The position numbers and the translations under genes are program-made. Below, one piece after another: positions 15,663 to 57,937 of a stretch of 64,000 nucleotides of DNA (positions within the stretch are counted from its first letter, which is position 1; every line of letters begins with the position of its first letter). Below the pieces are notes generated by a model. It was not told the DNA's origin. It saw only the letters and a list, made by a program, of their open reading frames with translations, and did not search any database. The DNA comes from Parcubacteria group bacterium (GTDB lineage Bacteria; Patescibacteriota; Minisyncoccia; UBA6257; Colwellbacteraceae), in assembly GCA_041649615.1 (NCBI GenBank), contig JBAZMT010000002.1, positions 10,017 to 74,016 on the forward strand. The letters are read 5' to 3'.

Positions 15663-16956
15663 ATGGATAAAATAACGCCTTCGGTTTTTCGGGCTTACGA
15701 CATTCGGGGCATATATCCTAAAGAGATAAACGAAGAGACTGTCCGTGTTGTGGTTCAGTTTCTTTCGCAATCGGTGTTTTCCGAAGGAAAAATAGTTGTC
15801 GCGATGGATGCTAGGCAAAGCTCTAAAAAATTGTTCCGAGCGGTAAAAAATGCCTTGAAAGGAAGAGAACTAATAGAGGTCGGTTATGCCACAACTCCCA
15901 TGTTTTATTATCTTTCAAACAGGTTTTCTGCGGCCGGAGGGGTAATGGTTACGGCTTCTCATAACGATCAAGAGTGGAACGGATTAAAGGTTGTAGGACC
16001 GAGGGCTGAAGCGATAAGCGGAGACGAGATAGAAGAAAGAATGAAGAAAAATGAAAATTAAGGAAAAATTTTTGAAAGTATACGCCGAATTTCTTTCGGG
16101 GGAGTTAAAAATACTCCGGAAAATAAAAATCGTTTTTGACGCCTCAAACGGATTTGCCGGCCAGATAATAAAAGAGGCGATAGGAGGAAACCAGCTTATT
16201 CAACCGATATTTATAAATTGCCGGCCGGACGGGAAATTTCCCGCTCACGGGCCGAATTCTTCCGCTCCCGGAGCAGCGGATGAGCTTATAAAAGAAGTCG
16301 TTCAGAAGAAGGCAGACGCCGGGTTTATTTTTGACGGAGACGGAGACAGGGTGATTATCGCCGATGAAAAGGGTAACTTGATTCATCCGGATCTTGTGAT
16401 CAGACTTTATACCAAGCACTATCACCCAGAAAAAATAATTATTGACCGGCGAATAGGGTGGTTCGTAAAGGAAGATCTTCGCACCGAAGAAAAGGTATCA
16501 ATAATAAAATCAAAAATAGGACATCTTAATGTTAAAAGAACCATGAAGGAAAACGGCGCCGATTTTGGGGCAGAAGGGTCGGGACACTATTATTTTCCGG
16601 TAGAAGGCACTTACATAGATTCCGGCGCGATAATGACTATGAGAATGATGACGATAATATCTGAAGACGGATCTCTTTCCGAATGGGTTTCGCGTCAAAA
16701 GCCGTATTTTAGATCGGGAGAAATATCTTTTTCAGTCGCCTCCGCGGAAAGGAACATTAAGTCGGTAGCGGATTATGCTAGAAAGAACGGATTTGAATTG
16801 GATTTTGAAGACGGACTGTATGCCGAGAAAGAAGATTTTCGCTTTTTACTGAGACCGGCGGCGAATGAACCGCTTATAAGGATGAATGCGGAAGCGAAAG
16901 AAGAAAACGTCTTGAAAAAAGGGGTTAACCTGATACAATCGCTTATCAGCGAATAA
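15663..16956 (+). pseudogene. phosphomannomutase/phosphoglucomutase (alpha-D-phosphohexomutase family) interrupted by a frameshift in an A5 run at about 16046-16050
   Basis: ORF1 (15663-16061) carries the active-site 'TASHND'. ORF2 (16051-16956) in another frame carries 'FDGDGDR' and 'IVFDASNG' (domains 2-4). The frames overlap in 'gaatgaagaaaaatgaaaattaa'. Confidence 0.7.
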
Positions 16957-16991: not shown

Positions 16992-17570
16992 ATGAAAGAC
17001 GTCATTGTAATAGACATTGAGACAAAGAATACTTTTTACGACGTGGGCGGAGAACAAAATATCGCTCGTCTTGAAATGTCTTTGGCGTGCGCATACTCGT
17101 ACAACAAAAACGAATACTTAAGCTTTTGGGAGAACGACGTGAAAGATTTGGGACAGATGTTAAAAGACGCGGCCTTTGTCGTCGGATTTAGCATAAACAG
17201 ATTTGATTTGCCGGTGCTTGATAAATATTTTGATTTCAGCACGAAAGCGTTGAGGAGAGTTGACCTGCTTGAGGAAATAGAGGTAAGCGTCGGAAAAAGA
17301 ATCGGATTAGATCTTCTTGCGCGAGCCAATTTGGGGACGGGCAAAACGCACAACGGGCTTGAAGCCATTAAATTTTGGAACGAAGGGAATTTAAAGGAAT
17401 TGGAAGAATACTGCCTGAATGACGTAAAAGTAACGAAAGAGCTTTTTGATCTTGCAAAGGGACAGAAATACCTTATGATGCCCGAAAAAGGAACGGAAGC
17501 GTTGAGAAAAGTCAGTCTGGATTTTGATGAAAAAATCAGGGAAGCGACAACCGAAAATACTTTATTTTGA
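16992..17570 (+). CDS. predicted 3'-5' exonuclease (RNase H-like/DEDD fold)
   Basis: 'VIVIDIETKN' Exo-I-like motif; 192 aa. Confidence 0.5.
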   Translation: MKDVIVIDIETKNTFYDVGGEQNIARLEMSLACAYSYNKNEYLSFWENDVKDLGQMLKDAAFVVGFSINRFDLPVLDKYFDFSTKALRRVDLLEEIEVSVGKRIGLDLLARANLGTGKTHNGLEAIKFWNEGNLKELEEYCLNDVKVTKELFDLAKGQKYLMMPEKGTEALRKVSLDFDEKIREATTENTLF

Positions 17571-18732
17571 TTACGCGGCAACCGCGCCGATAACGGCAAG
17601 CGCGGAAAAAGCGATGAAGCTGGCCTACGGTTCTTCTTTTGGGAATCCGGGATCAATTCATCGAGCCGGAATGAATGCGAGCGCTTTGCTTGATAAGGCA
17701 AGAGAAACAGTCGCTTTATCTTTGGGCGGAGATTTCAGCGGAATCGTTTTTACTTCTTCGGCGACCGAAGCCAATAATTTAGTTATTCGGGGAGTAGCAA
17801 AAAAATATATGGTCCGGAGAAGAACCGAAAGTTTCGGTTTGCCCGCGAGAGTCATTATTTCCGCGGCAGAACACGAATCGGTAGATCGGATGGCGGAAAA
17901 ATTGTCGGAAGAAGGAACGGAAGTCATTCGCGTGCCGGTTTATAAGAACGGAAAGGTAAATATAAAAGCGCTGAAAGAAGCCTTAAACGAAAGAACGGTA
18001 GTGGTTTCTCTCATATTCGTAAACAACGAAACGGGGGCGGTGAACGATGTGCTAAAAGTATCGGAAATAATTAAGGAGAAGAAAAAAGGAGAATATCCTA
18101 TATTTCACGTTGATGCTTCCCAGGCTTTTCAATACGAAGACTGTTCTTTTAATAGTACGGGAGCGGACGTAATAACGCTCTCATCTCACAAAATAGGCGG
18201 TCCGAAGGGAGCCGGCGCCGCGTGTTTTAGAAACAACGCCATTACTAGGCTTGTTGAGCCCATAACGTATGGTGGAGGACAAGAATTCGGAATGCGATCG
18301 GGCACGGAAAACGTACCGGCGATTTCCGGTTTCGCTGTGGCGATCAAAGAAGCCGATAGCTTAAGAAACAAAGAAATCAAGCGAGTAAGCGCGCTTAAAA
18401 AAATATTAATCCGGGAAATAGAGCGCTTGGTTCCCAAAGCCGAAGTTAACGGACCGGAACTGGAAGAGAGTTCGCCTCACATATTAAATGTCTGGCTACC
18501 GGGCATTTCAGCCGAGGAAATAATCGTGGCGATGGATATGGAAGGCAGCGCCATATCGTACGGTTCGGCCTGTTCCGCGAGGGCGTTTAGACAATCAAGG
18601 ATTTTGAGGGCAATGGGACATAAAGAAAACCGGGCGAGGGAGTCTGTGAGGATTAGCCTTGGCCGAGAGACTAAAATGGAGGATATCCGGAAATTTGTAA
18701 TAATTTTCAAGAAAGTAATCGCCAAATTTTAG
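17524..18732 (+). CDS. cysteine desulfurase (NifS/IscS-like class V aminotransferase)
   Basis: 'LYFDYAATAP', 'SSHKIGGPKG' PLP-lysine motif, 'GTENVP'. Start uncertain because it overlaps the upstream ORF. Confidence 0.8.
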   Translation: MMKKSGKRQPKILYFDYAATAPITASAEKAMKLAYGSSFGNPGSIHRAGMNASALLDKARETVALSLGGDFSGIVFTSSATEANNLVIRGVAKKYMVRRRTESFGLPARVIISAAEHESVDRMAEKLSEEGTEVIRVPVYKNGKVNIKALKEALNERTVVVSLIFVNNETGAVNDVLKVSEIIKEKKKGEYPIFHVDASQAFQYEDCSFNSTGADVITLSSHKIGGPKGAGAACFRNNAITRLVEPITYGGGQEFGMRSGTENVPAISGFAVAIKEADSLRNKEIKRVSALKKILIREIERLVPKAEVNGPELEESSPHILNVWLPGISAEEIIVAMDMEGSAISYGSACSARAFRQSRILRAMGHKENRARESVRISLGRETKMEDIRKFVIIFKKVIAKF

Positions 18733-18767: not shown

Positions 18768-21700
18768 ATGATGCTTAAAGAGAAATCAAACATTCCTGAG
18801 ATAGAAAACGAAGTCCTAAAATTTTGGGAAGACGCCCGTATTTTTGAAAAAACGATAGAACAAAGAAAGGAAAAGAAAGCTTTTTCTTTTTATGACGGGC
18901 CTCCGTTTGCAACGGGACTTCCTCATTATGGACACATACTCGCGACTACCATTAAAGACACCGTTACGAGATTTTGGACGATGAAGGGCCATAGGGTTGA
19001 AAGACGTGTAGGATGGGATTGCCACGGACTGCCGGTGGAAAATCTCATAGAAAAAGAACTGGGATTAAAGGACAAAAAAGCGATAGAGGAGTACGGCATA
19101 GAAAATTTCAACAACGCTTGCCGAGCGGCGGTTTTTCGTTCGGTTGGCGATTTTCAAGAGACGTTAAAACGGGTCGGGCGATGGGCTGATTATGCCAACT
19201 CGTACGCTACGCTTGATAACACTTATATGGAATCCGTCTGGTGGGTGTTTAAGGAACTTTGGAAAAGAAATTTGATCTATTCCGATTATCGGGTCACGCC
19301 TTACTGTCCCCGATGCGGTACCCCTCTTTCCAATTTTGAAGTAAATCAGGGATATAAAAACGCGACCGATCCGGCAATATTCGTAAAATTTAAGCTTAAA
19401 GAGCAACAGGATAACATACCTACTTATTTTGTGGCTTGGACCACGACGCCGTGGACACTTACGGCGAATGCGGCGCTTGCGGTTAAAGAAGACATTGAAT
19501 ACGCCTATGTCATAAAGGAAACGGAGAGGGGAAAAGAAAGGCTTATTCTTGCGAAAGATCGGTTACTGGCCGCGGGAATCACCGATCTGCCGGAAAAAGT
19601 GGTACATGGAAAAGAGCTTCGGGGAATGGAATATATTCCGCTGTTTTCTTTCGTGGAACCGAAAAAGAAAGCTTATTTTGTCGTAGCTACCGATTTTGTA
19701 TCGGTAGAAGAAGGAAGCGGAATAGTGCACATTGCGCCGGCTTTCGGCGCGGATGATATGGAAGCGGCTCGGAAAAACGGAATCCCAGTAATACTTACCG
19801 TAAACAAGGAAGGGAGATTCATAGACGAAGTTAAACCCTGGAACGGACAATTGGTCAAAAAAACCGATACGGAAATAATCAGACATCTTAAGTCGGAAGA
19901 AGCGTTACTCAAAGAAGAAACCGTGGATCACGAATATCCTTTCTGCTGGAGATGCGACACGCCTCTTCTTTATTACCCCATAGACAGTTGGTACGTAGCG
20001 GTAACGAAGATCAGGGATAAACTCGTAAAGAACAACGAAAAAATAAGATGGGTTCCGGCGCATATAAAGACGGGGAGATTCGGCAAGTGGCTCAAGGATA
20101 CGAGAGATTGGGCGATTTCCAGAAACAGATTCTGGGGGGCGCCGATGCCGGTTTGGAAATGCGCCGATTGCAACGCTTACATTCCGGTCGGCTCGCTTGA
20201 AGAACTTGAAAAATTAACGCCCACGAATAATGAATATTTTTTGATGCGCCACGGAGAGGCGGATTCAAACGTTTTGGATATCGTTTCTTCTTATCCGGAA
20301 AAAGCCGAAATCGGTCTCACGAAAAAAGGAATAAAGCAGGTTCAAGATGCGGCAAAACTTCTAAAAAGAGAAAAGATAGATTTAATAATTTCCTCGCCGT
20401 TAAAAAGAACGACCGAGACGGCGAAGATAATCGCAGAGGCTTTAGCTAAAAAATATTCGGTTGACGAAAGGCTCACCGAATATAATTTCGGTTCGCTAAA
20501 TGGACGGGGAACGGAGGAATTTGAAGCGCTTGTCGGCGGGCACGCGGGAAAATTCAGCAAAGCGCCGGAAGGAGGAGAGACGATAGTAGAAGTGAGGAAA
20601 AGGATGATTGATTTCTTGAACGACCTAGAAGAAAGCCATAAAGGCAAAAAGATATTGCTTATCGGTCACGGAGACCCTCTTTGGGTGCTTGAGGGCACGA
20701 TGAAAGGAATGGACAGGGAAAAACTGGTAGGCGAGAGGAAAAAAATAATGCCAAAACCCGGAGAGGTAAAGAATATGAAATTCGGGAAAATGCCTCTTGA
20801 TGAAAGCGGAGAACTAAACATGCATCGCCCCTACATTGATGAAGTGAAAATAAAATGTCCCAAGTGCGGAGGGGAAGCGAAGAGAGAATCCCAAGTGTTT
20901 GATTGCTGGTTTGAATCGGGTTCAATGCCTTACGCGTCTTGGCATTATCCGTTTGAAAACAAAAAGAAAGTGGAACGTATTTTCCCGGCCGATTTCATAG
21001 CGGAAGGATTAGACCAAACGAGAGGATGGTTTTACACGCTTCATGTTCTCGCAACGGCTCTAACGTCTAAAAATTCCCAGTTCGGCAAAGATAAACCCGC
21101 GTTCAAGAACGTTATCGTAAACGGGCTCATATTGGACGAATTCGGGCGAAAACTTTCCAAAAAACTTCGAAATTACACCGAACCGGAAATACTGATAGAT
21201 AAAACCGGAGCGGACGCTCTTCGGTATTTCTTATTAAGCTCCACTTCGATCGGGGAAGATTATCGTTTTTCGGATAAGGGGGTGATTGAGACAAAAACGA
21301 GAGTAACGGAGAGACTTTTGAATTCCTATAATTTTTTCTCAATGTATGCACGCGACGCGGACAGGGCGGAAGAATACAATCTTCCGGCGAAAGAAAACAT
21401 TTTAGACGTTTGGATAAAAGCCAGGTTCAAACAAGCGGTACGGCAAATAAATATAAATATGGAGAAGTACGAACTGACTCAAGCAACGAGACCGATAGCA
21501 GAACTGTTAGACGACTTTTCAAACTGGTACATAAGGCGTTCCAGGACGAGGCTTCAGCGCTCGGAATCGGAAGATGATTTTTATGCCGCTTCAAAAACTC
21601 TTTACGATTGCCTTGTTCTGGCGGCGAAATTAATGGCGCCTTTTACCCCCTTTATTGCGGAAGCGGTGTATAAATCGCTTACAGCTCGCAAGGAATCGGT

Positions 21701-22247
21701 TCATCTTGAAGAATGGCCTAATTTAGGAGAGATAACCAAAGAAGAAGAGCGGCTTATAGAGACAATGGCTTTCGCGCGAATAGCGGCGAGCCAAATTCTG
21801 GCAAAAAGATCGGAGGCAAACATAAAAGTTCGGCAGCCGCTCAAGTCTTATAAAACTTCTCTAAAAGAATTGGACGGACAAACGGAGATTCTCGCGCTCA
21901 TCGCCGATGAAGCGAACGTAGGTCAGGTGATTTACGATGAATCTGCCGGAGAATCGGGAGTGCTTGATACGGAAATGACCGAAGATTTGAGAAAGGCAGG
22001 AATATTAAGAGAACTCATGAGACTTACGCAGGACATGAGACAAAAAGCGGGGTTTAAACCGAAAGAAAAAGCCGCATTCTACATTTACTCGGAGGACGAG
22101 GAAATCAATAAAGTGATTTTAGAAAATGAGGAAAAATTAAAGAAAGACCTGTCGCTTAAAGAATTAAGAACGCAAAAAGACGACGATATGAAGATCACAA
22201 ACGAGACTAAAATTGCAGATAGCGAAATTTGGGCAGGAATAAGATAG
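18768..22247 (+). CDS. ileS: isoleucyl-tRNA synthetase with an inserted histidine-phosphatase (PGAM-like) domain
   Basis: 'PFATGLPHYGHIL' (HIGH), 'KLSKKL' (KMSKS), CP1 editing region. An extra ~180 aa ('EYFLMRHGEADSN...ILLIGHGDPLW') lies between 'ISRNRFWGAPMPVW' and 'VFDCWFESG'. Confidence 0.95.
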   Translation: MMLKEKSNIPEIENEVLKFWEDARIFEKTIEQRKEKKAFSFYDGPPFATGLPHYGHILATTIKDTVTRFWTMKGHRVERRVGWDCHGLPVENLIEKELGLKDKKAIEEYGIENFNNACRAAVFRSVGDFQETLKRVGRWADYANSYATLDNTYMESVWWVFKELWKRNLIYSDYRVTPYCPRCGTPLSNFEVNQGYKNATDPAIFVKFKLKEQQDNIPTYFVAWTTTPWTLTANAALAVKEDIEYAYVIKETERGKERLILAKDRLLAAGITDLPEKVVHGKELRGMEYIPLFSFVEPKKKAYFVVATDFVSVEEGSGIVHIAPAFGADDMEAARKNGIPVILTVNKEGRFIDEVKPWNGQLVKKTDTEIIRHLKSEEALLKEETVDHEYPFCWRCDTPLLYYPIDSWYVAVTKIRDKLVKNNEKIRWVPAHIKTGRFGKWLKDTRDWAISRNRFWGAPMPVWKCADCNAYIPVGSLEELEKLTPTNNEYFLMRHGEADSNVLDIVSSYPEKAEIGLTKKGIKQVQDAAKLLKREKIDLIISSPLKRTTETAKIIAEALAKKYSVDERLTEYNFGSLNGRGTEEFEALVGGHAGKFSKAPEGGETIVEVRKRMIDFLNDLEESHKGKKILLIGHGDPLWVLEGTMKGMDREKLVGERKKIMPKPGEVKNMKFGKMPLDESGELNMHRPYIDEVKIKCPKCGGEAKRESQVFDCWFESGSMPYASWHYPFENKKKVERIFPADFIAEGLDQTRGWFYTLHVLATALTSKNSQFGKDKPAFKNVIVNGLILDEFGRKLSKKLRNYTEPEILIDKTGADALRYFLLSSTSIGEDYRFSDKGVIETKTRVTERLLNSYNFFSMYARDADRAEEYNLPAKENILDVWIKARFKQAVRQININMEKYELTQATRPIAELLDDFSNWYIRRSRTRLQRSESEDDFYAASKTLYDCLVLAAKLMAPFTPFIAEAVYKSLTARKESVHLEEWPNLGEITKEEERLIETMAFARIAASQILAKRSEANIKVRQPLKSYKTSLKELDGQTEILALIADEANVGQVIYDESAGESGVLDTEMTEDLRKAGILRELMRLTQDMRQKAGFKPKEKAAFYIYSEDEEINKVILENEEKLKKDLSLKELRTQKDDDMKITNETKIADSEIWAGIR

Positions 22248-41157: not shown

Positions 41158-41229
41158 GGCCTGGTAGTCAAGTGGTAAGACGGAGCTCTGCAAAAGCTCT
41201 ATACGCGAGTTCGATTCTCGCCCAGGCCT
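41158..41229 (+). tRNA. tRNA-Cys (GCA), discriminator U
   Basis: GGCCTGG-TA-GTCA..., anticodon arm GAGCT-CTGCAAA-AGCTC, T-loop TTCGATT, acceptor CCAGGCC-T. Confidence 0.85.
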
Positions 41230-41295
41230 CTGAAATAACGGAATAGGCTGAATATATATTTCTTATTAGTGTTCCCTATTTGATATACTTATTAG

Positions 41296-41769
41296 GTGAG
41301 AACGAGATCTTGGACGGAAGAAAATTTGTTAGCAGCTATCCAGACTTCTTATAGTTTGAGACAAGTTATTAAAAAGTTAGGACTAAAAGCTGCAGGAGGT
41401 AATTATTGTCAGATAAAAGATTTTATAAGTAATAGAGGTTTTGATATAAGCCATTTTCGTGGAAAAGGGTGGAGTGCTGGGTTACGAGGAATAGGTAGGC
41501 CTCGCATCTCGTTAGAGGATATCCTGATCAAGGATAGTAGTTTTCAAAGTTTCAAACTTAAAAAAAGATTATTTGCCTCTGGTTTAAAACCAGAATACTG
41601 TGAAGAGTGTGGCTGGAATAAAAGGACAAAAGAAGGTTATTTACCGCTTGAACTAGACCATATTAACGGGGATCATAGGGATAATAGAATAGAAAATCTC
41701 CGTGTGTTATGTCCGAATTGTCATAGTTTAAAACCTACCCACAGAGGTAGAAAATTAAAAGGAATATAA
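41296..41769 (+). CDS. HNH endonuclease (free-standing), GTG start
   Basis: 'LELDHINGDHRDNRIENLRVLCPNCH' HNH motif and 'CEECGW' zinc-finger; paralogue of 3813-4187. Confidence 0.8.
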   Translation: MRTRSWTEENLLAAIQTSYSLRQVIKKLGLKAAGGNYCQIKDFISNRGFDISHFRGKGWSAGLRGIGRPRISLEDILIKDSSFQSFKLKKRLFASGLKPEYCEECGWNKRTKEGYLPLELDHINGDHRDNRIENLRVLCPNCHSLKPTHRGRKLKGI

Positions 41770-41775
41770 AGGTAT

Positions 41776-41858
41776 GCCCGGGTGTTGGAATGGTAGACAA
41801 GCGACACTTAAAATGTCGTGGAGGCAACTCCGTGTGGGTTCGATCCCCACTCCGGGCA
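41776..41858 (+). tRNA. tRNA-Leu (UAA), type II
   Basis: GCCCGGG..., anticodon arm CGACA-CTTAAAA-TGTCG, variable arm TGGAGGCAACTCCG, T-arm GTGGG-TTCGATC-CCCAC, discriminator A. Confidence 0.85.
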
Positions 41859-41863
41859 CTAAA

Positions 41864-42610
41864 ATGAAAGAAGAACATATTATCGTAGACGATCTGGACG
41901 TTTCTTACCTTGACCGCGGAGAGGGCGAAATCTTCTTGTTTCTTCACGGATGGGGAATGAACGCTTTTTCGTTCAACGATTTAATGGAACGATTCGGTGA
42001 TAAGAGATGCGTGGCGCTATCTCTTCCCGGATTTGGAGGAAGCGAGAAGCCGAAAACGGCGTGGAGCGTTGCCGATTACGCTAAATTCGTTCGCAAATTT
42101 CTTGAGAGACTTGAAATAAACGGAATTAAAGCGATAATCGCGCATTCGTTCGGAGGAAGAGTGGCTATAAAAGGAGTAGCCTCGGGAATTTTAGACCCGA
42201 AAAAATTGATTCTTATCGCTTCGGCGGGGGCGGCGAAAAAGTCGCTTAAGATGCGAATACTCGGGATGATCGCGAAAATCGCTAAAATATTTTTTGCCAT
42301 TTGGCCCTTGTCGCTTTTGAAAAATCGTTTGAAGCAGGTCGTGGGAAGCAGAGATTATTTAAGCGCGGGAGAAATGAGGGGTACGTTTATAAAAGCGATC
42401 AATGAAAGTTTGCTCCCGGATGCCAAAAAAATATCCATTCCAACGCTTTTAATGTGGGGAGATAGAGATACGGAGACTCCTCTTAACGAAGCTTATAGGT
42501 TTACGAGCGTGATTAAAAACGCGAAACTTGAAATTTTTTCGGGAGCGGGACATTTTGTTTTTAAAGAAAGATTAAACGAAGTCGCGGAGGCGATAAACAA
42601 ATTTCTATGA
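41864..42610 (+). CDS. alpha/beta hydrolase
   Basis: 'FLFLHGWGMN' (HGxG oxyanion motif) and 'AHSFGG' nucleophile elbow. Start placed at ATG 41864, just after the tRNA. Confidence 0.7.
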   Translation: MKEEHIIVDDLDVSYLDRGEGEIFLFLHGWGMNAFSFNDLMERFGDKRCVALSLPGFGGSEKPKTAWSVADYAKFVRKFLERLEINGIKAIIAHSFGGRVAIKGVASGILDPKKLILIASAGAAKKSLKMRILGMIAKIAKIFFAIWPLSLLKNRLKQVVGSRDYLSAGEMRGTFIKAINESLLPDAKKISIPTLLMWGDRDTETPLNEAYRFTSVIKNAKLEIFSGAGHFVFKERLNEVAEAINKFL

Positions 42611-45567: not shown

Positions 45568-46222
45568 GGTAGTACGCTTTTATTTTATCAAATTGATAGA
45601 ACAATATGAAGGCAATAAATACAAGGAAGATAGTTGGATAAAATTCCGGACCGAAACCGAGAACAAGAAGGTTGAAAATCATATGCACGACGACCGCGGC
45701 GATGATTCCGAAGAAAAGTTTTCCTTTGGCCCAGAGATAACCCAAGAGTCCCGAAGAAAGAGCGTGCATAAGAGTGGCGCCGATAAAACGAAGAACGGAG
45801 AGTCCAATGAATTCCTCGGTGGATCTTGCGTTCATCAGGAAAAAGAAATTTTCCGCCACGGCAAAACCCAAAGCAGCGGTAATCATATAAACCATTCGGT
45901 CTATCGGCTCGTCAAAGAACCGGCTGTGGCTTATGAATATGAAAACGGTGATAAATTTAACGAGCTCTTCTATCAAGGCATTTGCTCCGATTGATAAAAC
46001 CGAATATTCGGTGATGCCCAGGACGGGAGCGTAAATAGAGAATAGTTTTTCAAATCCCGCGGCGGCGAGAGCCGAGATAATGCCGAAAATAAAAGTTTTA
46101 GTGATAATGCTTTTCGGTTCGGGTTGTTCTCTGTCTTCAAGTAAAAAGAAAATAAGCCAGGCGGAACTCAAGAGAAATCCTAGGAAAATAGAGGCGGGGA
46201 TAATATAGTCGGTTATTGCCAA
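45542..46222 (-). CDS. PrsW-family intramembrane metalloprotease
   Basis: 'EELVKF' (EExxK), 'AENFFF', 'HMIFN' motifs within about 7 TM helices. Recall-based. Confidence 0.55.
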   Translation of the reverse strand: MAITDYIIPASIFLGFLLSSAWLIFFLLEDREQPEPKSIITKTFIFGIISALAAAGFEKLFSIYAPVLGITEYSVLSIGANALIEELVKFITVFIFISHSRFFDEPIDRMVYMITAALGFAVAENFFFLMNARSTEEFIGLSVLRFIGATLMHALSSGLLGYLWAKGKLFFGIIAAVVVHMIFNLLVLGFGPEFYPTIFLVFIAFILFYQFDKIKAYYHERKNRGK

Positions 46223-48351
46223 TGTTCAACCATAAGAAACTTTTCTCGGCGAACCTTTTTTGGGAGTTCTTGATAAACGGTTTCGGTAACGAAAGGCATA
46301 AACGGATGAAGCATTTTAAGCGAGCCCAAGAGTATCGTAACGAGCGTTTCCCTTGCCGCCGCGGCATCGCGTTCGTTATCCGATTTGAGGCGGGGCTTTG
46401 ATTCTTCAATCACAACGTCCGCGAAAGTATGCCAGAAATAATGATAAGCGGTTTCGGCCGCGTGATTAAAATCAAATTTTTCAATAAATCGGGATACTTT
46501 GTTCTTGGCTGCTTCCATATCGCGGATATTTTTGCGATCGCGAGCGGATAATTTGGGTTTTTTCTCGGGCTCCGTATAATCCATAAGAACAAAACGGGAA
46601 GCGTTCCAAATTTTGGTCGTAAAGTTTCGGTAGCCGCGGATTTTATCCTCGGAGATTATCGGATCCATTCCCGCGGTATTGCCGATAATCAAAGACATAC
46701 GAAGAGCGTCCATTCCGTAAGTCTCGGCAACTTCCAGAGGATTTATGACGTTTCCCTTTGATTTGGACATTTTCTGCCTGTCTTTGTCGCGAACGAGGCC
46801 GTGGAGATAAACGGTCTTGAAAGGAACTTTGCCGGTTCGGTAAATTCCGAACATTATCATTCGCATAACCCAAAAAGGAAGAATATCCCAACCGGTTTCC
46901 ATAACGTCTGTCGGATAGAATTTTTGGAAGTCTCCTCTCTTCGTCATAAGCGTGGCAAAAGGCCACTGTCCTGACGAAAACCAGGTATCAAAAACGTCTT
47001 CTTCGGCTTTAAAATTATTACTGTTGCATTCCGGACATTTTTCGGGAACAGGCTCGCTTATGATGACGTGGTCATTTTCGCAATACCAAACGGGGATTCT
47101 TATCCCCCAGACTATCTGGCGGGAAATATTCCAGTCGCGAAGATTCATTAGCCAGTGCATAAGCACTTTTCCGAAACGCGCGGGAATGATTTTTATTTTT
47201 CCGCTTTTAACGGCGTTAACGGCGAGATCGCGGAGAGATTTTCCTTTCGCGGGCGCATCCGTCATACGAACGAACCATTGCATCATAACGCGCGGTTCAA
47301 TAACCGAACCGCATTTATAGCAAACGGCGACTTCATGGGAATATTCTTCTTCTTTGATCAGCTTATTTCCCAGAAGTTCAAGCGATTTGTCTCTAGCTTC
47401 TTTAATTTTTAAGTCTCTAAGTTCTTTGCCCGCTTCATCGGTCAATTTACCGTAGCGATCGATAACGGAAACGGGCAAGTCGGGAATTTCTTTTTTGTGA
47501 GCGACCCAAATGTTAAAGTCGGCGGAATCGTGATAAGGCGTTATCTTCAAAGCACCCGTTCCGAAATCGGGATCAACCGATGCGTCGGAAATGACGGGAA
47601 TCGGTTTGCCAGTGATAGGGTTCAACACGTTTTTACCGACAAATTCTTTAAATCGGGATTTGGGATGAACGGCAACGGCCACGTCCGCCGGAATGGTTTC
47701 GGGACGAACGGTCGCTATTTCAACGAATCCATTACCGTCTTCCAAAGAGTATTTTACGTAGTAAAGTTTGTCGGCGCGTTCTTCGTGCTTGATTTCCAAG
47801 TCGGATAAAGTCGTCTGGTGTTTAACGCACCAATTGACCGGACGTTCGGCGCGATAAACGAGACCGTCTTTATAAAGGCTCTCAAACGTTTCATAAACGA
47901 TATCCTTAATATCCTCGTCAAGAGTGAATTTTTCTCTTGACCAATCGCAGCTGCTCCCTAGCTTCCGAAGCTGGCTCTCCATATATTGCTTGTTTTCCAG
48001 CGTGAATTTTTTGATCTCGTCGTACAGATCTTTCTTGGGAACATCCCAGAAAGAACGTCCTTCGCGCTCCAATTTTTTGTTGTAAACCACTTGAGTTTCA
48101 AAACCGGCATGGTCCGCTCCCGGGAGCCAAAGAGCTTTTCGGCCGCGCATCCGGTAATAGCGGATCATAATGTCTTCAAGCGTTACGAATAAGGCGTGCC
48201 CGATATGCAGGGATCCGTTCGCGTTCGGAGGGGGCATAATAATCGTAAAGGGCTTGCCTGACAGATTATCCGGATTGAAAAAGCCGGAATTTTCCCAGCT
48301 TTCGTAAATTTCCGCCTCGGAGCGATTATGATCGTAGCGCGTATCCATCAA
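46213..48351 (-). CDS. valS: valyl-tRNA synthetase (short form lacking the C-terminal coiled coil)
   Basis: 'PPPNANGSLHIGHA' (HIGH), 'KMSKSKGNVI'; 712 aa. Confidence 0.9.
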   Translation of the reverse strand: MMDTRYDHNRSEAEIYESWENSGFFNPDNLSGKPFTIIMPPPNANGSLHIGHALFVTLEDIMIRYYRMRGRKALWLPGADHAGFETQVVYNKKLEREGRSFWDVPKKDLYDEIKKFTLENKQYMESQLRKLGSSCDWSREKFTLDEDIKDIVYETFESLYKDGLVYRAERPVNWCVKHQTTLSDLEIKHEERADKLYYVKYSLEDGNGFVEIATVRPETIPADVAVAVHPKSRFKEFVGKNVLNPITGKPIPVISDASVDPDFGTGALKITPYHDSADFNIWVAHKKEIPDLPVSVIDRYGKLTDEAGKELRDLKIKEARDKSLELLGNKLIKEEEYSHEVAVCYKCGSVIEPRVMMQWFVRMTDAPAKGKSLRDLAVNAVKSGKIKIIPARFGKVLMHWLMNLRDWNISRQIVWGIRIPVWYCENDHVIISEPVPEKCPECNSNNFKAEEDVFDTWFSSGQWPFATLMTKRGDFQKFYPTDVMETGWDILPFWVMRMIMFGIYRTGKVPFKTVYLHGLVRDKDRQKMSKSKGNVINPLEVAETYGMDALRMSLIIGNTAGMDPIISEDKIRGYRNFTTKIWNASRFVLMDYTEPEKKPKLSARDRKNIRDMEAAKNKVSRFIEKFDFNHAAETAYHYFWHTFADVVIEESKPRLKSDNERDAAAARETLVTILLGSLKMLHPFMPFVTETVYQELPKKVRREKFLMVEHWQ

Positions 48352-48374: not shown

Positions 48375-49445
48375 TTATGTCGCAAGGTTTCCGTCCGCCG
48401 CGAGTTTTCGTTTAACGCCTTTCAAATCTTCGATGTAACTTGAAACGGCGATCATTGCGGCATTGTCGGTACTTAAGCTTTTTCCCGGCGCGAGAAAAGG
48501 AATTTTTCTTTTTTTGGCCTCGCGCGCGAATTCGCTACGCAACAATTTATTTGCGGAAACGCCTCCCGAAATGGCTATTGAACGACAAGTATGATTATCC
48601 ACCGCGCGAAAGGATTTTATAACCAGACAATCAATAATCGCTTTCTCATAACTTGCGGCGATGTCGGCCTGAAATCCGGACGCGAGATTTTTGTTTTTGC
48701 CGATAATGGAATCTTTATTTATTTCTTTCCAATTCGCTTTATTACTGCCTTTTAATTTGTAGAGAAGAGAAGTTTTAAGTCCGGCGAAACTGAAATCGTA
48801 ATTTTTCTGGCCGACCATGGGACGGGGAAAATCAAAGGCATTTGCGTTTCCCTTAAGGGCCAGACGTTCCAATTCGGGACCTCCGGGATAAGGAAGACCC
48901 AAGAGGCGCGCTCCCTTATCAAGCGCTTCGCCCGCGGCATCGTCTCTCGTTTCACCAATTTTTTTAACGGCTCCTAGATTATCAAGTTTAAAAAGAATGG
49001 TATGTCCTCCCGAAACGACGAGCGCAATCATCGGAAAGAGTTTTTTATATTTTTTGGGATTAGACAGAAGAAAACTGTATAAATGTCCCTTAATGTGATT
49101 TGCGGCAAAAACATGCCTGCCGGTTTCTTTTCCGAGCGCTCGAGCGAATTCAATGCCCGTCCAAAGAGCCGGTTCAAGACCCGGACCGGCGGTTACGGCT
49201 ATAAAATCGCTATTTTTAAATTCGGGGATGGGCGTGAAGCGTTTTATCATAAGGGGCAGCGCCCGACCGTGTTCCCGCTTTGCGATATTAGGCACTACGC
49301 CTCCGAATTGTTTGTGAATGGCAATCTGCGATAAAACGGCGCTTTTAATGATTTTAAAGCGGGGGTTTGCAAGTTTACCCTTTGCTTCTACAAGCGCCAT
49401 AGCCGTTTCATCGCAGCTCGTTTCTACTGAGAAAATAAGAGACAT
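48375..49445 (-). CDS. tsaD: tRNA N6-threonylcarbamoyladenosine synthase TsaD/Kae1
   Basis: 'SVETSCDETA' N-terminal signature and ASKHA fold. The ORF-track N-terminal extension is rejected; start placed at Met 'MSLIFSVE'. Confidence 0.85.
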   Translation of the reverse strand: MSLIFSVETSCDETAMALVEAKGKLANPRFKIIKSAVLSQIAIHKQFGGVVPNIAKREHGRALPLMIKRFTPIPEFKNSDFIAVTAGPGLEPALWTGIEFARALGKETGRHVFAANHIKGHLYSFLLSNPKKYKKLFPMIALVVSGGHTILFKLDNLGAVKKIGETRDDAAGEALDKGARLLGLPYPGGPELERLALKGNANAFDFPRPMVGQKNYDFSFAGLKTSLLYKLKGSNKANWKEINKDSIIGKNKNLASGFQADIAASYEKAIIDCLVIKSFRAVDNHTCRSIAISGGVSANKLLRSEFAREAKKRKIPFLAPGKSLSTDNAAMIAVSSYIEDLKGVKRKLAADGNLAT

Positions 49446-49526
49446 ATATAGGGAAATAATTATCCCAAACGTCCCTAAAATCAATTTCTTGACGATAGGG
49501 CGGAAACGCAAGAATATATAAGTAAA

Positions 49527-50849
49527 ATGGAAGAGAAAAGGATATATATGGACTATGCGGCAACCGCGCCGGTAGACAGTCAAGTATTATCGGAGATGAT
49601 GCCGTATTTTTCCGAGAATTTCGGGAATCCTTCGTCGGTTCACGAATTTGGCGAAGAGGCACAAAAGGGGGTCGTAAAAGCGAGACAACAAATAGCCGAA
49701 TTCTTGGGATGTGATACTTCGGAAATTCTTTTTACAAGTGGAGCGACCGAAGGGAACAATACGGTCGTAAAAGGAATTGCGATGTCCCGGAAAATATGGG
49801 ACGAGCGAGAAGGAAAGCCGCACATAATAGTGACGGATATTGAACATGATTGCGTGCTTGAGTCGGCGAAAAGAGTTGCGAGAGACGGTCTTGCCGAAGT
49901 TTCGTTCGTGCCGGTTCAAAATGACGGTCGAGTAAACATAGAGACAATAAAAAGTCTTATTCGACCCGAAACGGCGCTTGTTTCCGTAATGTATGCCAAT
50001 AACGAAACCGGCGCGATACAGCCGATCAGGGAAATCGGAAAAATGATAGCGGAGTTGAATGCCACGGGAAGAAAAAGAATTTATTTTCATTCGGATTCCG
50101 CTCAGGCGGCGAATTATCTGGACTGCAACGTAAATAACTTACAGGTGGATTTACTTACCATTTCAGCGCACAAGATATACGGGCCGAAAGGAATAGGAGT
50201 GCTTTATGTAAGGAAGGGAACGCCGCTTGCGAAATTCATGGACGGCGGAGAACAGGAATACAAATTAAGGGCGGGAACGCATAACACGCCGGGAATAGTC
50301 GGTTTCGGAAGCGCCGTCTCAAGAATTAAGGATTACGCGGCAAAAAACGAAGAAATAAGGGTCTTAAGAGATAAGCTGATAGACGGAATACTTTCTTCGG
50401 TATCTCGTTCGGCATTGAACGGTCCGAAAGAAAACAGGTTGCCTAATAATGCGAATATCAGGTTTGAAGGAGCCGAGGGAGAAGCAATACTTGTGATGTT
50501 AAGCCAGGCCGGAATATCAGTTTCAACCGGTTCGGCTTGCGCGGCAAAATCTTTATCTCCTTCGCACGTTTTGAAAGCGATGGGAATGAGCGATCTTGAC
50601 GCGCACAGTTCAATCAGATTTTCTTTGGGAAGAGGAACGACAGCGGAAGACGTAAATTACGTGATATCCGTGTTACCGGGAATAATAGAAAAACTTCGCA
50701 GTGTTAGCGGAAGTTTCGGCGAACCGGCAAAGCAACCCTCTTCCGAAACAAACATGTTTTATAGCGATGACGTGCTTGATCGCGGAGGACTGCCCGCGGA
50801 TTTGGGATGTGAGAAGAACAGGAAAACGGGAGAGATAAAAGAAGAATAA
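49527..50849 (+). CDS. iscS: cysteine desulfurase IscS/NifS
   Basis: 'IYMDYAATAP', 'SAHKIYGPKG'. Confidence 0.85.
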   Translation: MEEKRIYMDYAATAPVDSQVLSEMMPYFSENFGNPSSVHEFGEEAQKGVVKARQQIAEFLGCDTSEILFTSGATEGNNTVVKGIAMSRKIWDEREGKPHIIVTDIEHDCVLESAKRVARDGLAEVSFVPVQNDGRVNIETIKSLIRPETALVSVMYANNETGAIQPIREIGKMIAELNATGRKRIYFHSDSAQAANYLDCNVNNLQVDLLTISAHKIYGPKGIGVLYVRKGTPLAKFMDGGEQEYKLRAGTHNTPGIVGFGSAVSRIKDYAAKNEEIRVLRDKLIDGILSSVSRSALNGPKENRLPNNANIRFEGAEGEAILVMLSQAGISVSTGSACAAKSLSPSHVLKAMGMSDLDAHSSIRFSLGRGTTAEDVNYVISVLPGIIEKLRSVSGSFGEPAKQPSSETNMFYSDDVLDRGGLPADLGCEKNRKTGEIKEE

Positions 50850-53530: not shown

Positions 53531-54259
53531 ATGAGGAAGATCGCGTTTTTGATTTTCGCCGTTATGGGGATCGCTGTATTTTCTGCGGCGCCGGTTTTGG
53601 CTTGGACCAATCCAGCAGCTAATCCGGCAACGGGAGGAGGAGCGGTAACGGCGGAACAGAATGCTCCAGCAAGTTCCATTCTTATAAAGAACACAGGCGG
53701 AGTTTGGATTAATACGACGACGGATACGAGGCCTCTTGTGATTTCGCGCAATGGAACCGATAGCGAGCGGATAAATATCGGGATAACGGACGGCACAACA
53801 AATTTCTATTACAAAAATGACGAGGCGGTAGGTTCGATCTCCTTTAGAATTCAAAATACGGACACCGAGACGGGAGGAGGGGCGGCGGCGAATGATAATG
53901 TGATAATGACCATCTTGGGCGGCGGAGCAAGTTACGATAACGGTCGCGTCGGTATAGGTACTGCCAGTCCTTCATATAAATTGTCCGTAGCGGGTTGGAT
54001 CCAATCAACTACCGGCGGGTTTAGGTTTCCTGATGGAACAACCCAGACAACGGCTGCCAGCAGTTCTACCGTAAACGCGGCGAATGTTTCTGCGGGAACG
54101 TTCGGGGACAACACGGGAGGAGGTATTTATCTTTTCCCCTCAAATATCGGATTTAAGAGCGGTGTAAGCTCGTTTACGATACGGCCCATAAGCACTACGT
54201 CTATGGGAATTTATGATAGCGCGGGAGCGCAAGTGCTTGTTCTAGACGAAGGAACATAG
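53531..54259 (+). CDS. secreted Gly/Thr/Ser-rich repeat protein (tail-fibre/beta-helix-like motif)
   Basis: Signal peptide; 'GRVGIGTASPSYKLSVAGWI' resembles a motif common in phage tail-fibre-like and adhesin proteins. Recall-based. Confidence 0.45.
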   Translation: MRKIAFLIFAVMGIAVFSAAPVLAWTNPAANPATGGGAVTAEQNAPASSILIKNTGGVWINTTTDTRPLVISRNGTDSERINIGITDGTTNFYYKNDEAVGSISFRIQNTDTETGGGAAANDNVIMTILGGGASYDNGRVGIGTASPSYKLSVAGWIQSTTGGFRFPDGTTQTTAASSSTVNAANVSAGTFGDNTGGGIYLFPSNIGFKSGVSSFTIRPISTTSMGIYDSAGAQVLVLDEGT

Positions 54260-56203: not shown

Positions 56204-57124
56204 ATGGCGTTTACTTGGAGCTCGCTTAGCGCGGGAAGCCCAATTGAAGACGAAGACTATAACGAGGTTAAAACAAACCTCGATTCGGTGTATTCGGCTT
56301 TAGGAATTTCCAGGCCAAGCTGCTCGGGGCCAGGATGGACGGTTTTGCCCGTATCAAGCGGTTCGGCGATAACTTCGGCTCAATCACAGCAGTTAAGGGA
56401 CGTAACGGACTATGCCGATACGAATTGGTGTAAGACGCACAACACGGCGCATTGTAGCGGAGTTAATTCTACTGAAAATGTAACTCATAATAGCGGTAAT
56501 AATGCAACAGTTAATGCGACGGCCAATACAACCGTTAGATCAACCCACAATTCTGGTCATTATACCTCTTACAACGCAACGGTGGATGCGTCGGATTATG
56601 TGAATGATTTCATGACTAACTGTTACCATTACATTGCTGCTGATTCTGCGGCAAAGGTAAATGATTATGTGACTGTTCAGACTATGCACTTCTCCGCTTT
56701 TCAATCTGGCCTATGTGGACAGGAGAACACTACACATAATACCACTGTTCGAGCAGCGCATTGGGGTCCTTTTAATGGAACGGTTAATTTAACAGTAAGA
56801 GCAGCGCACAATGCCGATTACGACAGTCCCGACAACATAGGAGCGCAGGCGACAAATAATACCACCCATTACGGTTCAAACTGGAGTCCTTATAACAACG
56901 GCGTTAATACGTCTGTAAGGAGCGCTTATTACGTTGATAACGACGCGCCCGATTACATAAGCGTAAGAACAACGCATAATACCACTCATTTAAGCGCGCA
57001 TAATGGTACTGTTCGAGCCGCCTATTGGGGGCCGTATAACGGAACGGTATATACGACGCACAAGGGAACACATCACTCAAATTATGACGGGACGGATAAC
57101 AGTACGGTGAGAAGCGTTTATTAA
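56204..57124 (+). CDS. MAFxW-family repeat protein B (306 aa): Asn/Thr/His/Tyr-rich, candidate radical-SAM substrate
   Basis: Leader-like N-terminus 'MAFTWSSLSAGSPIEDEDYNEVKTNLDSVYSALGI'. Repeated modules 'NTTH', 'TVRAAHWGPFNGTV', 'NNTTHYGSNWSPYNNGVNTSVRSAYYVDNDAPDYIS'. No signal peptide. Confidence 0.55.
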   Translation: MAFTWSSLSAGSPIEDEDYNEVKTNLDSVYSALGISRPSCSGPGWTVLPVSSGSAITSAQSQQLRDVTDYADTNWCKTHNTAHCSGVNSTENVTHNSGNNATVNATANTTVRSTHNSGHYTSYNATVDASDYVNDFMTNCYHYIAADSAAKVNDYVTVQTMHFSAFQSGLCGQENTTHNTTVRAAHWGPFNGTVNLTVRAAHNADYDSPDNIGAQATNNTTHYGSNWSPYNNGVNTSVRSAYYVDNDAPDYISVRTTHNTTHLSAHNGTVRAAYWGPYNGTVYTTHKGTHHSNYDGTDNSTVRSVY

Positions 57125-57136
57125 TATAGAAAACAA

Positions 57137-57937
57137 ATGGCTTTTACTTGGCAACAAAATATAGGAGTGGGTTCTTCCATTGATGCGGCGGATATTTTAG
57201 AAATTCGCACGAACGTTAATACGGTAGATTCTAAAAAATGTGTAACTCACAACGCGGGTGTTAATACAACTTATAATTCTGGGGTAGACAGCACTGATAG
57301 AGCGAGTCATTACTCAGGGCAGAACACAACGGTACGGTCGACTTATAATAGCAGTCAAAACAGTGCAAATAATGTAACTGTTTATACAGGACAAGACTCT
57401 GGTTATCATGGCACTGCCGATGCTGAATTTTGGGGACAGCACCACACAAGTGAAGAAGTGGGAGCGAAAACTTATGTTTATTCAGGCTTTAATACAGGTG
57501 TTTATACAAACCAAGATGCAGGGGTATTCACGGGCAATAATAGTGCTGTTCGAGCTACTCATAATACTACACACGACGGGAGCGATTATGATACGCAATA
57601 TTCTTCGCAGAATACTACCCATAACGGCGCACACTGGAGTCCGTATAACGGATACGTATATACGACAGTAAGGGCAAATTATTATGTGGATAATGATACG
57701 CCCGACTATATATCACACAACACAAACAACAATACCACTCACTACGGTTCAAACTGGAGCCCATATAATTCAAGCGTTAATACGACGGTTAGAGCAACTC
57801 ATAATGCGGGCGTATTGAGCATTCATAATAGCAATCACGACGGAGGAGACTATACGAGCCAGTATTCTACTCATAATCCGAACTATAAAACCGCTCATTG
57901 GGGACCGTATAATGCAACGCACAATCGCAATTATTAG
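57137..57937 (+). CDS. MAFxW-family repeat protein C (266 aa): paralogue of B
   Basis: 'MAFTWQQNIGVGSSIDAADILEIRTNVNTVDSKK' plus the same modules ('NTTHYGSNWSPYNSSVNTTVRATH', 'YYVDNDTPDYIS', 'HWGPYNAT'). Confidence 0.55.
   Translation: MAFTWQQNIGVGSSIDAADILEIRTNVNTVDSKKCVTHNAGVNTTYNSGVDSTDRASHYSGQNTTVRSTYNSSQNSANNVTVYTGQDSGYHGTADAEFWGQHHTSEEVGAKTYVYSGFNTGVYTNQDAGVFTGNNSAVRATHNTTHDGSDYDTQYSSQNTTHNGAHWSPYNGYVYTTVRANYYVDNDTPDYISHNTNNNTTHYGSNWSPYNSSVNTTVRATHNAGVLSIHNSNHDGGDYTSQYSTHNPNYKTAHWGPYNATHNRNY

Follow-up and report, generated by a model that had tools for sequence, protein, structure and literature searches.

The DNA analysed here, referred to below as the window, is a stretch of 64,000 nucleotides (nt) from a Parcubacteria group bacterium (GenBank assembly GCA_041649615.1, contig JBAZMT010000002.1, positions 10,017 to 74,016 of the forward strand). 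Its ileS gene encodes an isoleucyl-tRNA synthetase (IleRS) of 1159 amino acids (aa) with a histidine phosphatase domain nested in the catalytic body. We describe the host protein, the point of insertion and the guest domain, follow the same phosphatase through related genomes, and discuss why it may be kept so close to tRNA charging. The features of the gene and of the rest of the window are listed in table 1.

A complete type-2 isoleucyl-tRNA synthetase

In GenBank the window IleRS is deposited as MFA5052682.1 under the bare label 'class I tRNA ligase family protein'. When searched as a whole protein against NCBIfam, it scores 873.5 bits with the ileS equivalog model TIGR00392, above the cutoff of 621.4, and is a member of that family. 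Pfam recovers tRNA-synt_1 (E=8e-132) in two stretches that flank His_Phos_1, followed by Anticodon_1 and DUF5915. Across 51 homologues, residues H53, G55 and H56 of the HIGH signature and K795, S797 and K798 of the KMSKS-type loop are invariant, and so are T225-T227, H321 and D330 of CP1, the region that matches the isolated IleRS editing-domain structures 1wk8/1wny/1ue0 (E=3e-36). The C-terminal organization, with DUF5915 and not the C-terminal zinc-binding domain of type 1, is that of type 2. Among solved structures, IleRS2, Thermus and eukaryotic enzymes come closest, and the protein aligns over its entire IleRS body with Priestia megaterium IleRS2 (8C8U, E=1e-228) and Thermus thermophilus IleRS (1ILE, E=2e-224). 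The HIGH and KMSKS-type loops, CP1, the zinc-knuckle CP3, the helical anticodon domain and the DUF5915-type C-terminus are all held in common with type-2 (eukaryote-like, mupirocin-insensitive) IleRSs. Judged from its sequence, then, the window protein is a complete type-2 IleRS with all its IleRS parts intact. The original prediction, made from the letters of the window, had read the gene as one uninterrupted open reading frame (ORF) of 1159 codons, and both the frame and the motifs it quoted are found where it placed them; its intact HIGH and KMSKS motifs are present as signatures, although they read HYGH and KLSKK and the second is thus not a literal KMSKS.

Table 1. Coordinates of the ileS gene, its nested phosphatase domain and other features of the 64,000-nt window.
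Feature	Position (nt)	Strand	Basis or remark
ileS ORF, 1159 aa, type-2 IleRS with nested phosphatase	18768..22247	+	single ORF, no internal stop
HIGH signature HYGH, aa 53-56	18924..18935	+	H53, G55, H56 invariant in 51 homologues
CP1 editing domain, aa ~195-391, with TTTPWT and GSGIVHIAPAFGADD motif	19350..19940	+	structure match, invariants
CP2-CP3 linker 'RDWAISRNRFWG', aa 446-457	20103..20138	+	sequence; naming after PMC7955072
CP3 N-terminal half: beta-hairpin, first Cys pair C465/C468, helix 'SLEELEKL'	20151..20225	+	alignment, model
Nested His_Phos_1 domain, aa ~487-672	20226..20783	+	Pfam, AlphaFold, Foldseek
Catalytic Arg494-His495, RHG motif; His the presumed phospho-acceptor	20247..20252	+	motif, alignment
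Second phosphate-binding Arg547, 'SPLKR'	20406..20408	+	kept in 280/281 copies
Glu571, 'RLTEYNFG', presumed proton donor	20478..20480	+	E or D in 280/281 copies
Second catalytic His634, in subfamily signature 'GHGDPLWVLEG'	20667..20669	+	kept in 278/279 copies
Return linker 'MPLDESGELNMHRPYID', CP3 C-terminal half (C697, C700), 'DCWFESG' Rossmann strand	20784..20921	+	alignment
KMSKS-type loop KLSKK, aa 795-799	21150..21164	+	sequence
Site 2, loop after anticodon-reading helix, aa ~861-878; no insert in window protein	21348..21401	+	alignment
Anticodon_1 (aa 880-1026) and type-2 C-terminal DUF5915 (aa 1065-1153)	21405..22226	+	Pfam
Phosphoglucomutase/phosphomannomutase ORF, 301 aa, domains II and III only	16051-16956	+	Pfam
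Cofactor-independent phosphoglycerate mutase, 516 aa	27453-29006	-	Metalloenzyme and iPGM_N; 5 kb from ileS
HNH endonuclease ORF, 157 aa, between tRNA-Cys (41158-41230) and tRNA-Leu (41776-41859)	41296-41769	+	
Class Ia synthetase, 711 aa, probably short ValRS; partial Anticodon_1 at extreme end	46213-48351	-	Pfam

The phosphatase interrupts the CP3 zinc knuckle

Residues 10-482 of the window protein align to residues 11-476 of the solved P. megaterium IleRS2 (8c8u), and residues 682-1078 to residues 485-869, so that about 191 extra residues take the place of a loop of about nine. The window IleRS differs from 8C8U precisely in nesting a second enzyme at this loop. The original estimate of about 180 extra residues was close, and the interval of 20230-20780 proposed for them matches the folded domain given in table 1. 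On the host sequence, ISRNRFWGAPMP begins at residue 450 and 'DCWFESG' at residue 712, and the insert is bounded by 'VWKCADC...GSLEELEKL' on one side and 'LNMHRPYIDEVKIKCPKCGG...DCWFESG' on the other, separating the two Cys-x-x-Cys halves of the CP3 zinc knuckle.

In yeast IleRS, the CP2-3 linker 'ARDWxxSRNRxWG' contributes to the pocket that accommodates reveromycin A and the 3' end of the tRNA (PMC7955072). CP3 of the Thermus enzyme carries a zinc motif, and its topology varies among the Candida, Thermus and Staphylococcus IleRSs (PMC7191050), which marks CP3 as structurally variable and tolerant of insertions. A further sign of this tolerance is an extra low-complexity insertion of 15-35 residues (e.g. 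'GKNQKPSLAIAGRGGRRGQSPLRSS') present in the first CP3 zinc hairpin at loci L092, L099, L139, L116 and L143. The junctions of the phosphatase are homologous in every insert-bearing orthologue, with the return linker conserved ahead of 'DLHRPYID', and some orthologues have lost the zinc cysteines and retained the insert.

The nested domain has the residues of a working phosphatase

PF00300 (His_Phos_1) matches aa 491-652 with E=1.9e-35 and 122.8 bits against a gathering threshold of 21.7, so that the concern that the insert might score as no known fold falls away. The 'FLMRHGEADSN' motif begins at aa 491 (nt 20238) and 'ILLIGHGDPLW' at aa 629 (nt 20652). An AlphaFold2 model of the whole protein, built from an alignment of 51 sequences, has a mean predicted local distance difference test (pLDDT) score of 88.9 and a predicted template modelling (pTM) score of 0.82; over aa 491-670 the means of ten-residue blocks lie between 87 and 96, both linkers are ordered, and strands and helices alternate as is typical of the histidine phosphatase fold. 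With the isolated domain model as query, Foldseek returns PspA, GpgP, CobC, PhoE and riboflavin HFP, with probability 1.0 and template modelling scores of 0.65-0.70.

The catalytic site was compared in 281 near-complete copies of the domain drawn from embedded, tandem, free-standing and fused contexts. R494 is retained in all 273 copies aligned at this position and H495 in 272 of 273; the second arginine, the acidic proton donor and the second histidine are kept to a similar degree (table 1). That no fewer than 99% of copies retain the R/H/R/E(D)/H set fits a working enzyme and not a relic; the embedded phosphatase is complete and subject to purifying selection, and by its residues it looks catalytically competent. 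This bears on the idea that the domain turns nothing over and merely exerts allosteric control on IleRS by binding a phosphometabolite, or only stabilizes CP3. The high pLDDT through both linkers and the pTM of the whole model do suggest rigid packing on CP3, and the retention of the insert in orthologues devoid of zinc cysteines would suit a structural role. The near-perfect conservation of the nucleophile, the proton donor and both arginines, which extends to stand-alone copies of the domain, speaks against it, and we find such a role highly improbable.

The insert falls under every NCBIfam equivalog cutoff: it scores 98.6 against 225 for dPGM_arch, its best match (other models of cofactor-dependent phosphoglycerate mutase, dPGM, score far lower), 85.7 against 162.9 for CobC, 70.1 against 350 for PspA and 40.6 against 74.5 for SixA. 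Its substrate is therefore not readable from homology. The identities PspA, CobC, GpmB and SixA were each considered and rejected on these grounds, and the fold search yields a generic group of small phosphatases. The description 'PGAM-like' in the original prediction is not to be taken in the sense of a phosphoglycerate mutase, since a cofactor-independent phosphoglycerate mutase (iPGM) is encoded in the window and makes the insert an unlikely candidate for the glycolytic mutase of the cell. A glycolytic dPGM role is made unlikely by the scores below the dPGM cutoffs as well.

Compared with the small branch-1 phosphatases PspA (4IJ5), PhoE (1H2E/1EBB), CobC (6E4B), GpgP Rv2419c (4PZA) and HFP (9MMH), the insert has the same fold, the same size of some 170-200 aa and the RHG...R...E...H set in common, with an identity of just 23-29%. 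It differs from them in a signature of its own, HGDPLW.LEG, and in being nested in, fused to or adjoining aminoacyl-tRNA synthetases.

The insert is widespread among Patescibacteria

When GTDB species were scanned, each represented by one genome, the insert was recovered at the same place in 14 of them, with a regional identity of 36%-74% and labels such as Parcubacteria, Colwellbacteria, Paceibacterota and similar; other IleRSs, both from the candidate phyla radiation (CPR) and from outside it, are devoid of it. In a collection of 5.8 billion proteins, PF00300 is present in 109 of the 120 best full-length matches, down to 46% identity, that is, in 108 clusters at 90% identity besides the window protein. 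Where the source names the organisms, they include Colwell-, Jorgensen-, Wolfe-, Nealson-, Portnoy- and Pacebacteria.

This distribution decides a further question, namely whether the architecture might be an artefact of chimeric assembly or a selfish element, such as an intein or another mobile insertion that the mature protein has lost. Beyond the unusual architecture itself nothing speaks for it. The same architecture and junctions recur in 14 species and over 100 independent clusters, so the insert is not a join of ileS to a separate gpmB-like gene, the mis-assembly that had been named as a possible refutation; GC content and skew run unbroken across the junctions. Pfam detects no Hint or endonuclease domain, and the junction stretches 'LTPTNNEYF' and 'GELNMHRPY', which are conserved as linkers, contain no splice residues. 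We regard an artefact or a selfish element as having next to no probability. The phosphatase insert as first proposed is thus borne out by all four checks proposed with it, namely the domain search, the alignment to solved IleRS structures, the structure prediction and the survey of CPR sequences, as is its description as an intein-free domain acquisition that keeps the reading frame, whereas the accompanying idea of mupirocin-like or antibiotic-related phosphate chemistry found no support.

Other attachment sites, copy numbers and fusion partners

A profile search of 1.84 billion representatives yielded 223 members of the subfamily at E<=1e-30. Among 147 new top representatives, the domain resides in IleRS in 78 and is free in 65; one is a C-terminal fusion to ArgRS, and three have other architectures. 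Most of the IleRS-borne representatives have one domain (69 of 78), eight have two, and one has four in tandem. The second copy in two-domain IleRSs occupies either what we call site 2, the loop before the 'LDxW' helix of the anticodon domain, or CP3 after 'DLHKENVDRI'. Site 2, empty in the window protein, thus carries a second phosphatase domain in IleRSs of other Patescibacteria. It follows the helix on which N852 of the window protein aligns with N647 of P. megaterium IleRS2, the residue that reads A35/U36. When site-2 domains were compared, all pairwise identities fell between 25% and 35%.

The protein P0251 (1161 aa), a possible truncated form, has four tandem His_Phos_1 domains that follow the N-terminal IleRS half; together with it, P0291, P0341, P0364 and P0373 represent IleRSs with two to four tandem domains. 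At two loci with the phosphatase at site 2 (L067:2799-6584 and L068:1-3903, the latter with an additional domain in CP3), ileS is broken by in-frame UGA under genetic code 11, where it is called as several genes, and continuous under code 25, with lengths of 1261 aa and at least 1300 aa, respectively. This points to recoding of the Gracilibacteria/Absconditabacteria type. One UGA in the site-2 lineages falls on the invariant Gly of the 'LT.KG' motif of the phosphatase.

In the ArgRS fusion (P0250, locus L152:6001-8070), the C-terminal position of the phosphatase is confirmed both by Pfam and at the locus, where the cluster reads smpB / argS-phosphatase / recO / proS and ileS is missing. Fusions to Sua5/YrdC (TsaC), exemplified by P0316, make up four clusters, and P0333 is the sole fusion to ATP sulfurylase that we found. 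P0387 has two tandem His_Phos_1 domains, no partner and no subfamily signature. TsaC of CPR bacteria is fused to many other domains as well (P0391-P0503), most commonly to an MGMT-type DNA_binding_1 domain, and also to TruB, 2H phosphoesterase, NUDIX, GNAT, methylpurine glycosylase and histidine phosphatase domains; this promiscuity of the patescibacterial TsaC is striking in its own right.

A stand-alone phosphatase between argS and ileS

The nearest stand-alone relatives of the insert are proteins of about 190 aa, 32-40% identical to it, with a private signature in common that consists of 'N.Y..LRHG', 'SHGDPLWLLEG' and a C-terminal 'PGE.R'. All five of those examined singly adjoin an insert-less type-2 ileS and/or directly follow argS. 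Scanning metagenomes with a profile built from the free form extended this to 80 loci, at 32 of which the phosphatase is embedded in IleRS and at 48 of which it is free. Of the free loci, 43 have at least 600 nt of downstream flank; ileS lies near the phosphatase in 36 of these, immediately downstream on the same strand in 30, farther away in one and convergent in five, and it was not seen in the remaining seven. Upstream flank is available for 38 free loci, and argS is present there in 30 (ending immediately upstream in 25, farther off in five). It is also often found directly upstream of the embedded forms; in the window, argS lies 17.5 kb from ileS and carries no phosphatase. The order argS-phosphatase-ileS is held across relatives just 32-55% identical, with smpB, infC, rplT, recO, trpS, RNase J and proS as other recurrent neighbours.

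On this sequence evidence, the insert descends from a stand-alone gene of about 190 aa that related Patescibacteria carry between argS and ileS. Neither this origin nor the recurrence of the association at other positions and in ArgRS figured in the original prediction. Embedded and free forms interleave in neighbour-joining trees, whether these are built from the IleRS body or from the phosphatase domain; both trees were inferred with no support values and conflict with the homologous junctions.

One explanation is that an ordinary housekeeping phosphatase of metabolism, for instance one for phosphoserine, sugar phosphates or a cofactor, came by chance to be placed between argS and ileS and was absorbed by these neighbours during genome compaction, the two activities being mechanistically unrelated. 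The closest matches in sequence and fold are indeed small metabolic phosphatases (PspA, CobC, GpgP, PhoE, riboflavin HFP), adjacency raises the odds of fusion, gene fusion in CPR bacteria is promiscuous (e.g. TsaC-MGMT), and CP3 and the site-2 loop are permissive, length-variable places. Such a passive history accounts less well for an internal in-frame insertion, which requires two precise junctions, and for its recurrence at three IleRS positions, in tandem arrays of up to four domains with the catalytic residues kept, and in ArgRS. The gene order conserved at such low identity, and the scores of the insert under every equivalog cutoff, speak against it too. We treat this explanation as the main rival of the reading favoured below, though one less likely than not.

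The neighbourhoods of the phosphatase loci form a housekeeping translation cluster in which no toxin, defence, kinase or ligase genes were found. This is relevant to the notion that the domain protects the synthetase or a partner by dephosphorylating it after attack by a HipA/HipT-like or other regulatory kinase. Protein phosphatases of the PGAM family exist (PGAM5, Sts-1, SixA), the targets of HipA/HipT toxins include GltX/TrpS, phosphorylated close to the KMSKS loop, and Ser797 of the KLSKK loop is invariant. Against this stand the housekeeping neighbourhood devoid of kinase and toxin genes, the tandem arrays of two to four active domains, which a phosphatase acting in cis would not need, and the fusions to TsaC and ATP sulfurylase, which do not fit. 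Self-protection of this kind seems very improbable to us.

Possible role of the phosphatase in tRNA charging

Few enzymes are as conserved as the aminoacyl-tRNA synthetases, and it is rare for a foreign enzyme to be accommodated in their catalytic cores. The pairing described here recurs in hundreds of related bacteria, with the phosphatase tied genetically or physically to IleRS and ArgRS through many arrangements that are independent of one another, and we infer that this coupling is selected and not accidental. The reading that we favour, while granting it somewhat less than an even chance, is that of a two-enzyme protein in which a type-2 IleRS and a branch-1 histidine phosphatase are kept coupled as the activity of the phosphatase serves adenylate-forming enzymes. 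It would stay attached to IleRS, ArgRS and, rarely, TsaC and ATP sulfurylase for the benefit of these partners, most likely as an independent hydrolytic site for a diffusible phosphorylated product; if pyrophosphate (PPi) or some other phosphorylated by-product were removed in this way, the reversible adenylation step would be driven forward. The variable attachment (at three internal loops and at N- and C-termini), the presence of one to four intact copies and the constitutive neighbourhood fit a diffusible small substrate better than a positioned macromolecule.

As to the identity of this substrate, IleRS, ArgRS, TsaC and ATP sulfurylase have a single chemical feature in common, in that they split ATP between its alpha and beta phosphates and release PPi, which favours PPi; we nonetheless consider this assignment distinctly doubtful. 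A comparable arrangement exists in some eukaryotes, where a canonical family-I pyrophosphatase, with established activity, is fused to ATP sulfurylase/APS kinase. The logic of tethering a PPi-removing hydrolase to a PPi-releasing adenylyl-transferase would be the same, whereas the pyrophosphatase activity of the phosphatase described here is hypothetical. No pyrophosphatase gene was found in the 64-kb window, which is uninformative, the window being a part of the genome.

Several observations weigh against an activity in the service of adenylate-forming enzymes. We know of no branch-1 histidine phosphatase that acts as a pyrophosphatase. In most copies an acidic residue directly follows the catalytic His (HGD/HE), which is odd for a polyanionic substrate. 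The synthetases involved are two of about twenty, the fusion to ATP sulfurylase is a single sequence that has Gln as its proton donor, and fusion to so many unrelated domains makes the partners of TsaC poor functional evidence in CPR bacteria.

A substrate on the tRNA itself would be the alternative, the phosphatase removing a 2'/3'-terminal phosphate, or one at an anticodon-loop nick, from the synthetase-bound tRNA for repair and charging. IleRS and ArgRS bind tRNA, and TsaC works in t6A modification of tRNA. CP3 begins immediately behind the linker bordering the tRNA 3'-end pocket, site 2 comes next after the helix with the A35/U36-reading Asn, and the C-terminus of ArgRS is likewise near the anticodon. 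TsaC of CPR bacteria is alternatively fused to 2H cyclic phosphodiesterases, and the HD domain of the Escherichia coli CCA-adding enzyme has 2',3'-cyclic phosphodiesterase and phosphatase activity. In the window, the 3' CCA is not encoded in 11 of 13 tRNA genes, apparently being encoded only in tRNA-Arg(CCU) and tRNA-Ser(GCU). To our knowledge, though, there is neither a routine source of 3'-phosphorylated tRNA nor a histidine phosphatase that acts on RNA ends. Why end-healing should serve Ile and Arg alone is hard to see, the fusion to ATP sulfurylase would be unexplained, and the neighbourhood offers no ligase, kinase or nuclease partners except general RNases, so that we judge this proposal improbable.

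In broader terms, quite possibly, if short of probably, a phosphatase reaction belongs to tRNA charging as a selected and integral component in a large share of the Patescibacteria, be it the removal of PPi or another by-product or the removal of a phosphate from tRNA. A dedicated subfamily would carry that reaction, free in the argS-phosphatase-ileS operon, nested at three IleRS positions or fused to ArgRS.

Two curated families come closest as precedents. The actinobacterial RNase H/acid phosphatase (NF005567, Rv2228c/RnhC type), in which His_Phos_1 is joined to a nucleic-acid enzyme, is the second-best NCBIfam match of the insert; the score of 92.4 bits is far under the cutoff of 326, and the case differs in being a terminal fusion, not a nested one, and in its partner. 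NF040702 (ileS_w_GNAT) shows that an IleRS can host an extra catalytic domain, there a GNAT and not a phosphatase, and the window protein, with a score of 294 against the cutoff of 1999, is not a member. We found no publication on a phosphatase nested in a synthetase core or on an argS-phosphatase-ileS cluster, and a 2026 preprint on the domain evolution of IleRS makes no mention of a phosphatase insert. In sum, an ordinary type-2 IleRS hosts an ordinary-looking small histidine phosphatase of a subfamily of its own, and the unusually strong and multi-form association of the two suggests an as yet undescribed auxiliary activity.

The sequences are public and have passed unremarked, under the label 'class I tRNA ligase family protein' or, in the UGA-recoded lineages, as several separate genes, which makes the architecture relevant to annotation. 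The pairing places a second enzyme, apparently an active one, inside the core of an essential synthetase, and it is kept up by several independent means throughout a major uncultivated radiation. Were the coupling functional, it would reveal that translation in ultra-small, energy-limited cells has a requirement unseen in model organisms, for instance local control of PPi or repair of tRNA ends, and it would be new both as an auxiliary activity among aminoacyl-tRNA synthetases and as a physiological role of the histidine phosphatase fold.

Other features of the window

The 13 tRNA genes of the window include three for tRNA-Arg and none for tRNA-Ile. An ORF at 41774-42610, beyond the one for the HNH endonuclease, overlaps the tRNA-Leu gene. 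On the minus strand, the putative short ValRS comes immediately downstream of TsaD, the other ORF of the pair being at 48375-49583 (-). Two ORFs on the plus strand, 58114-59403 and 59295-60722, overlap by about 110 nt and have weak radical-SAM matches below the Pfam thresholds; three ORFs in the vicinity, at 53531-54259, 56204-57124 and 57137-57937, have no Pfam match.

Upstream of ileS, the phosphoglucomutase/phosphomannomutase ORF as called is devoid of domain I, the bearer of the catalytic serine. It is followed by an RNase H-fold exonuclease-like ORF (16992-17570, +), which overlaps by 47 nt a cysteine desulfurase ORF with a TTG start (17524-18732, +); the true start of this cysteine desulfurase, located just upstream of ileS, is probably further downstream.

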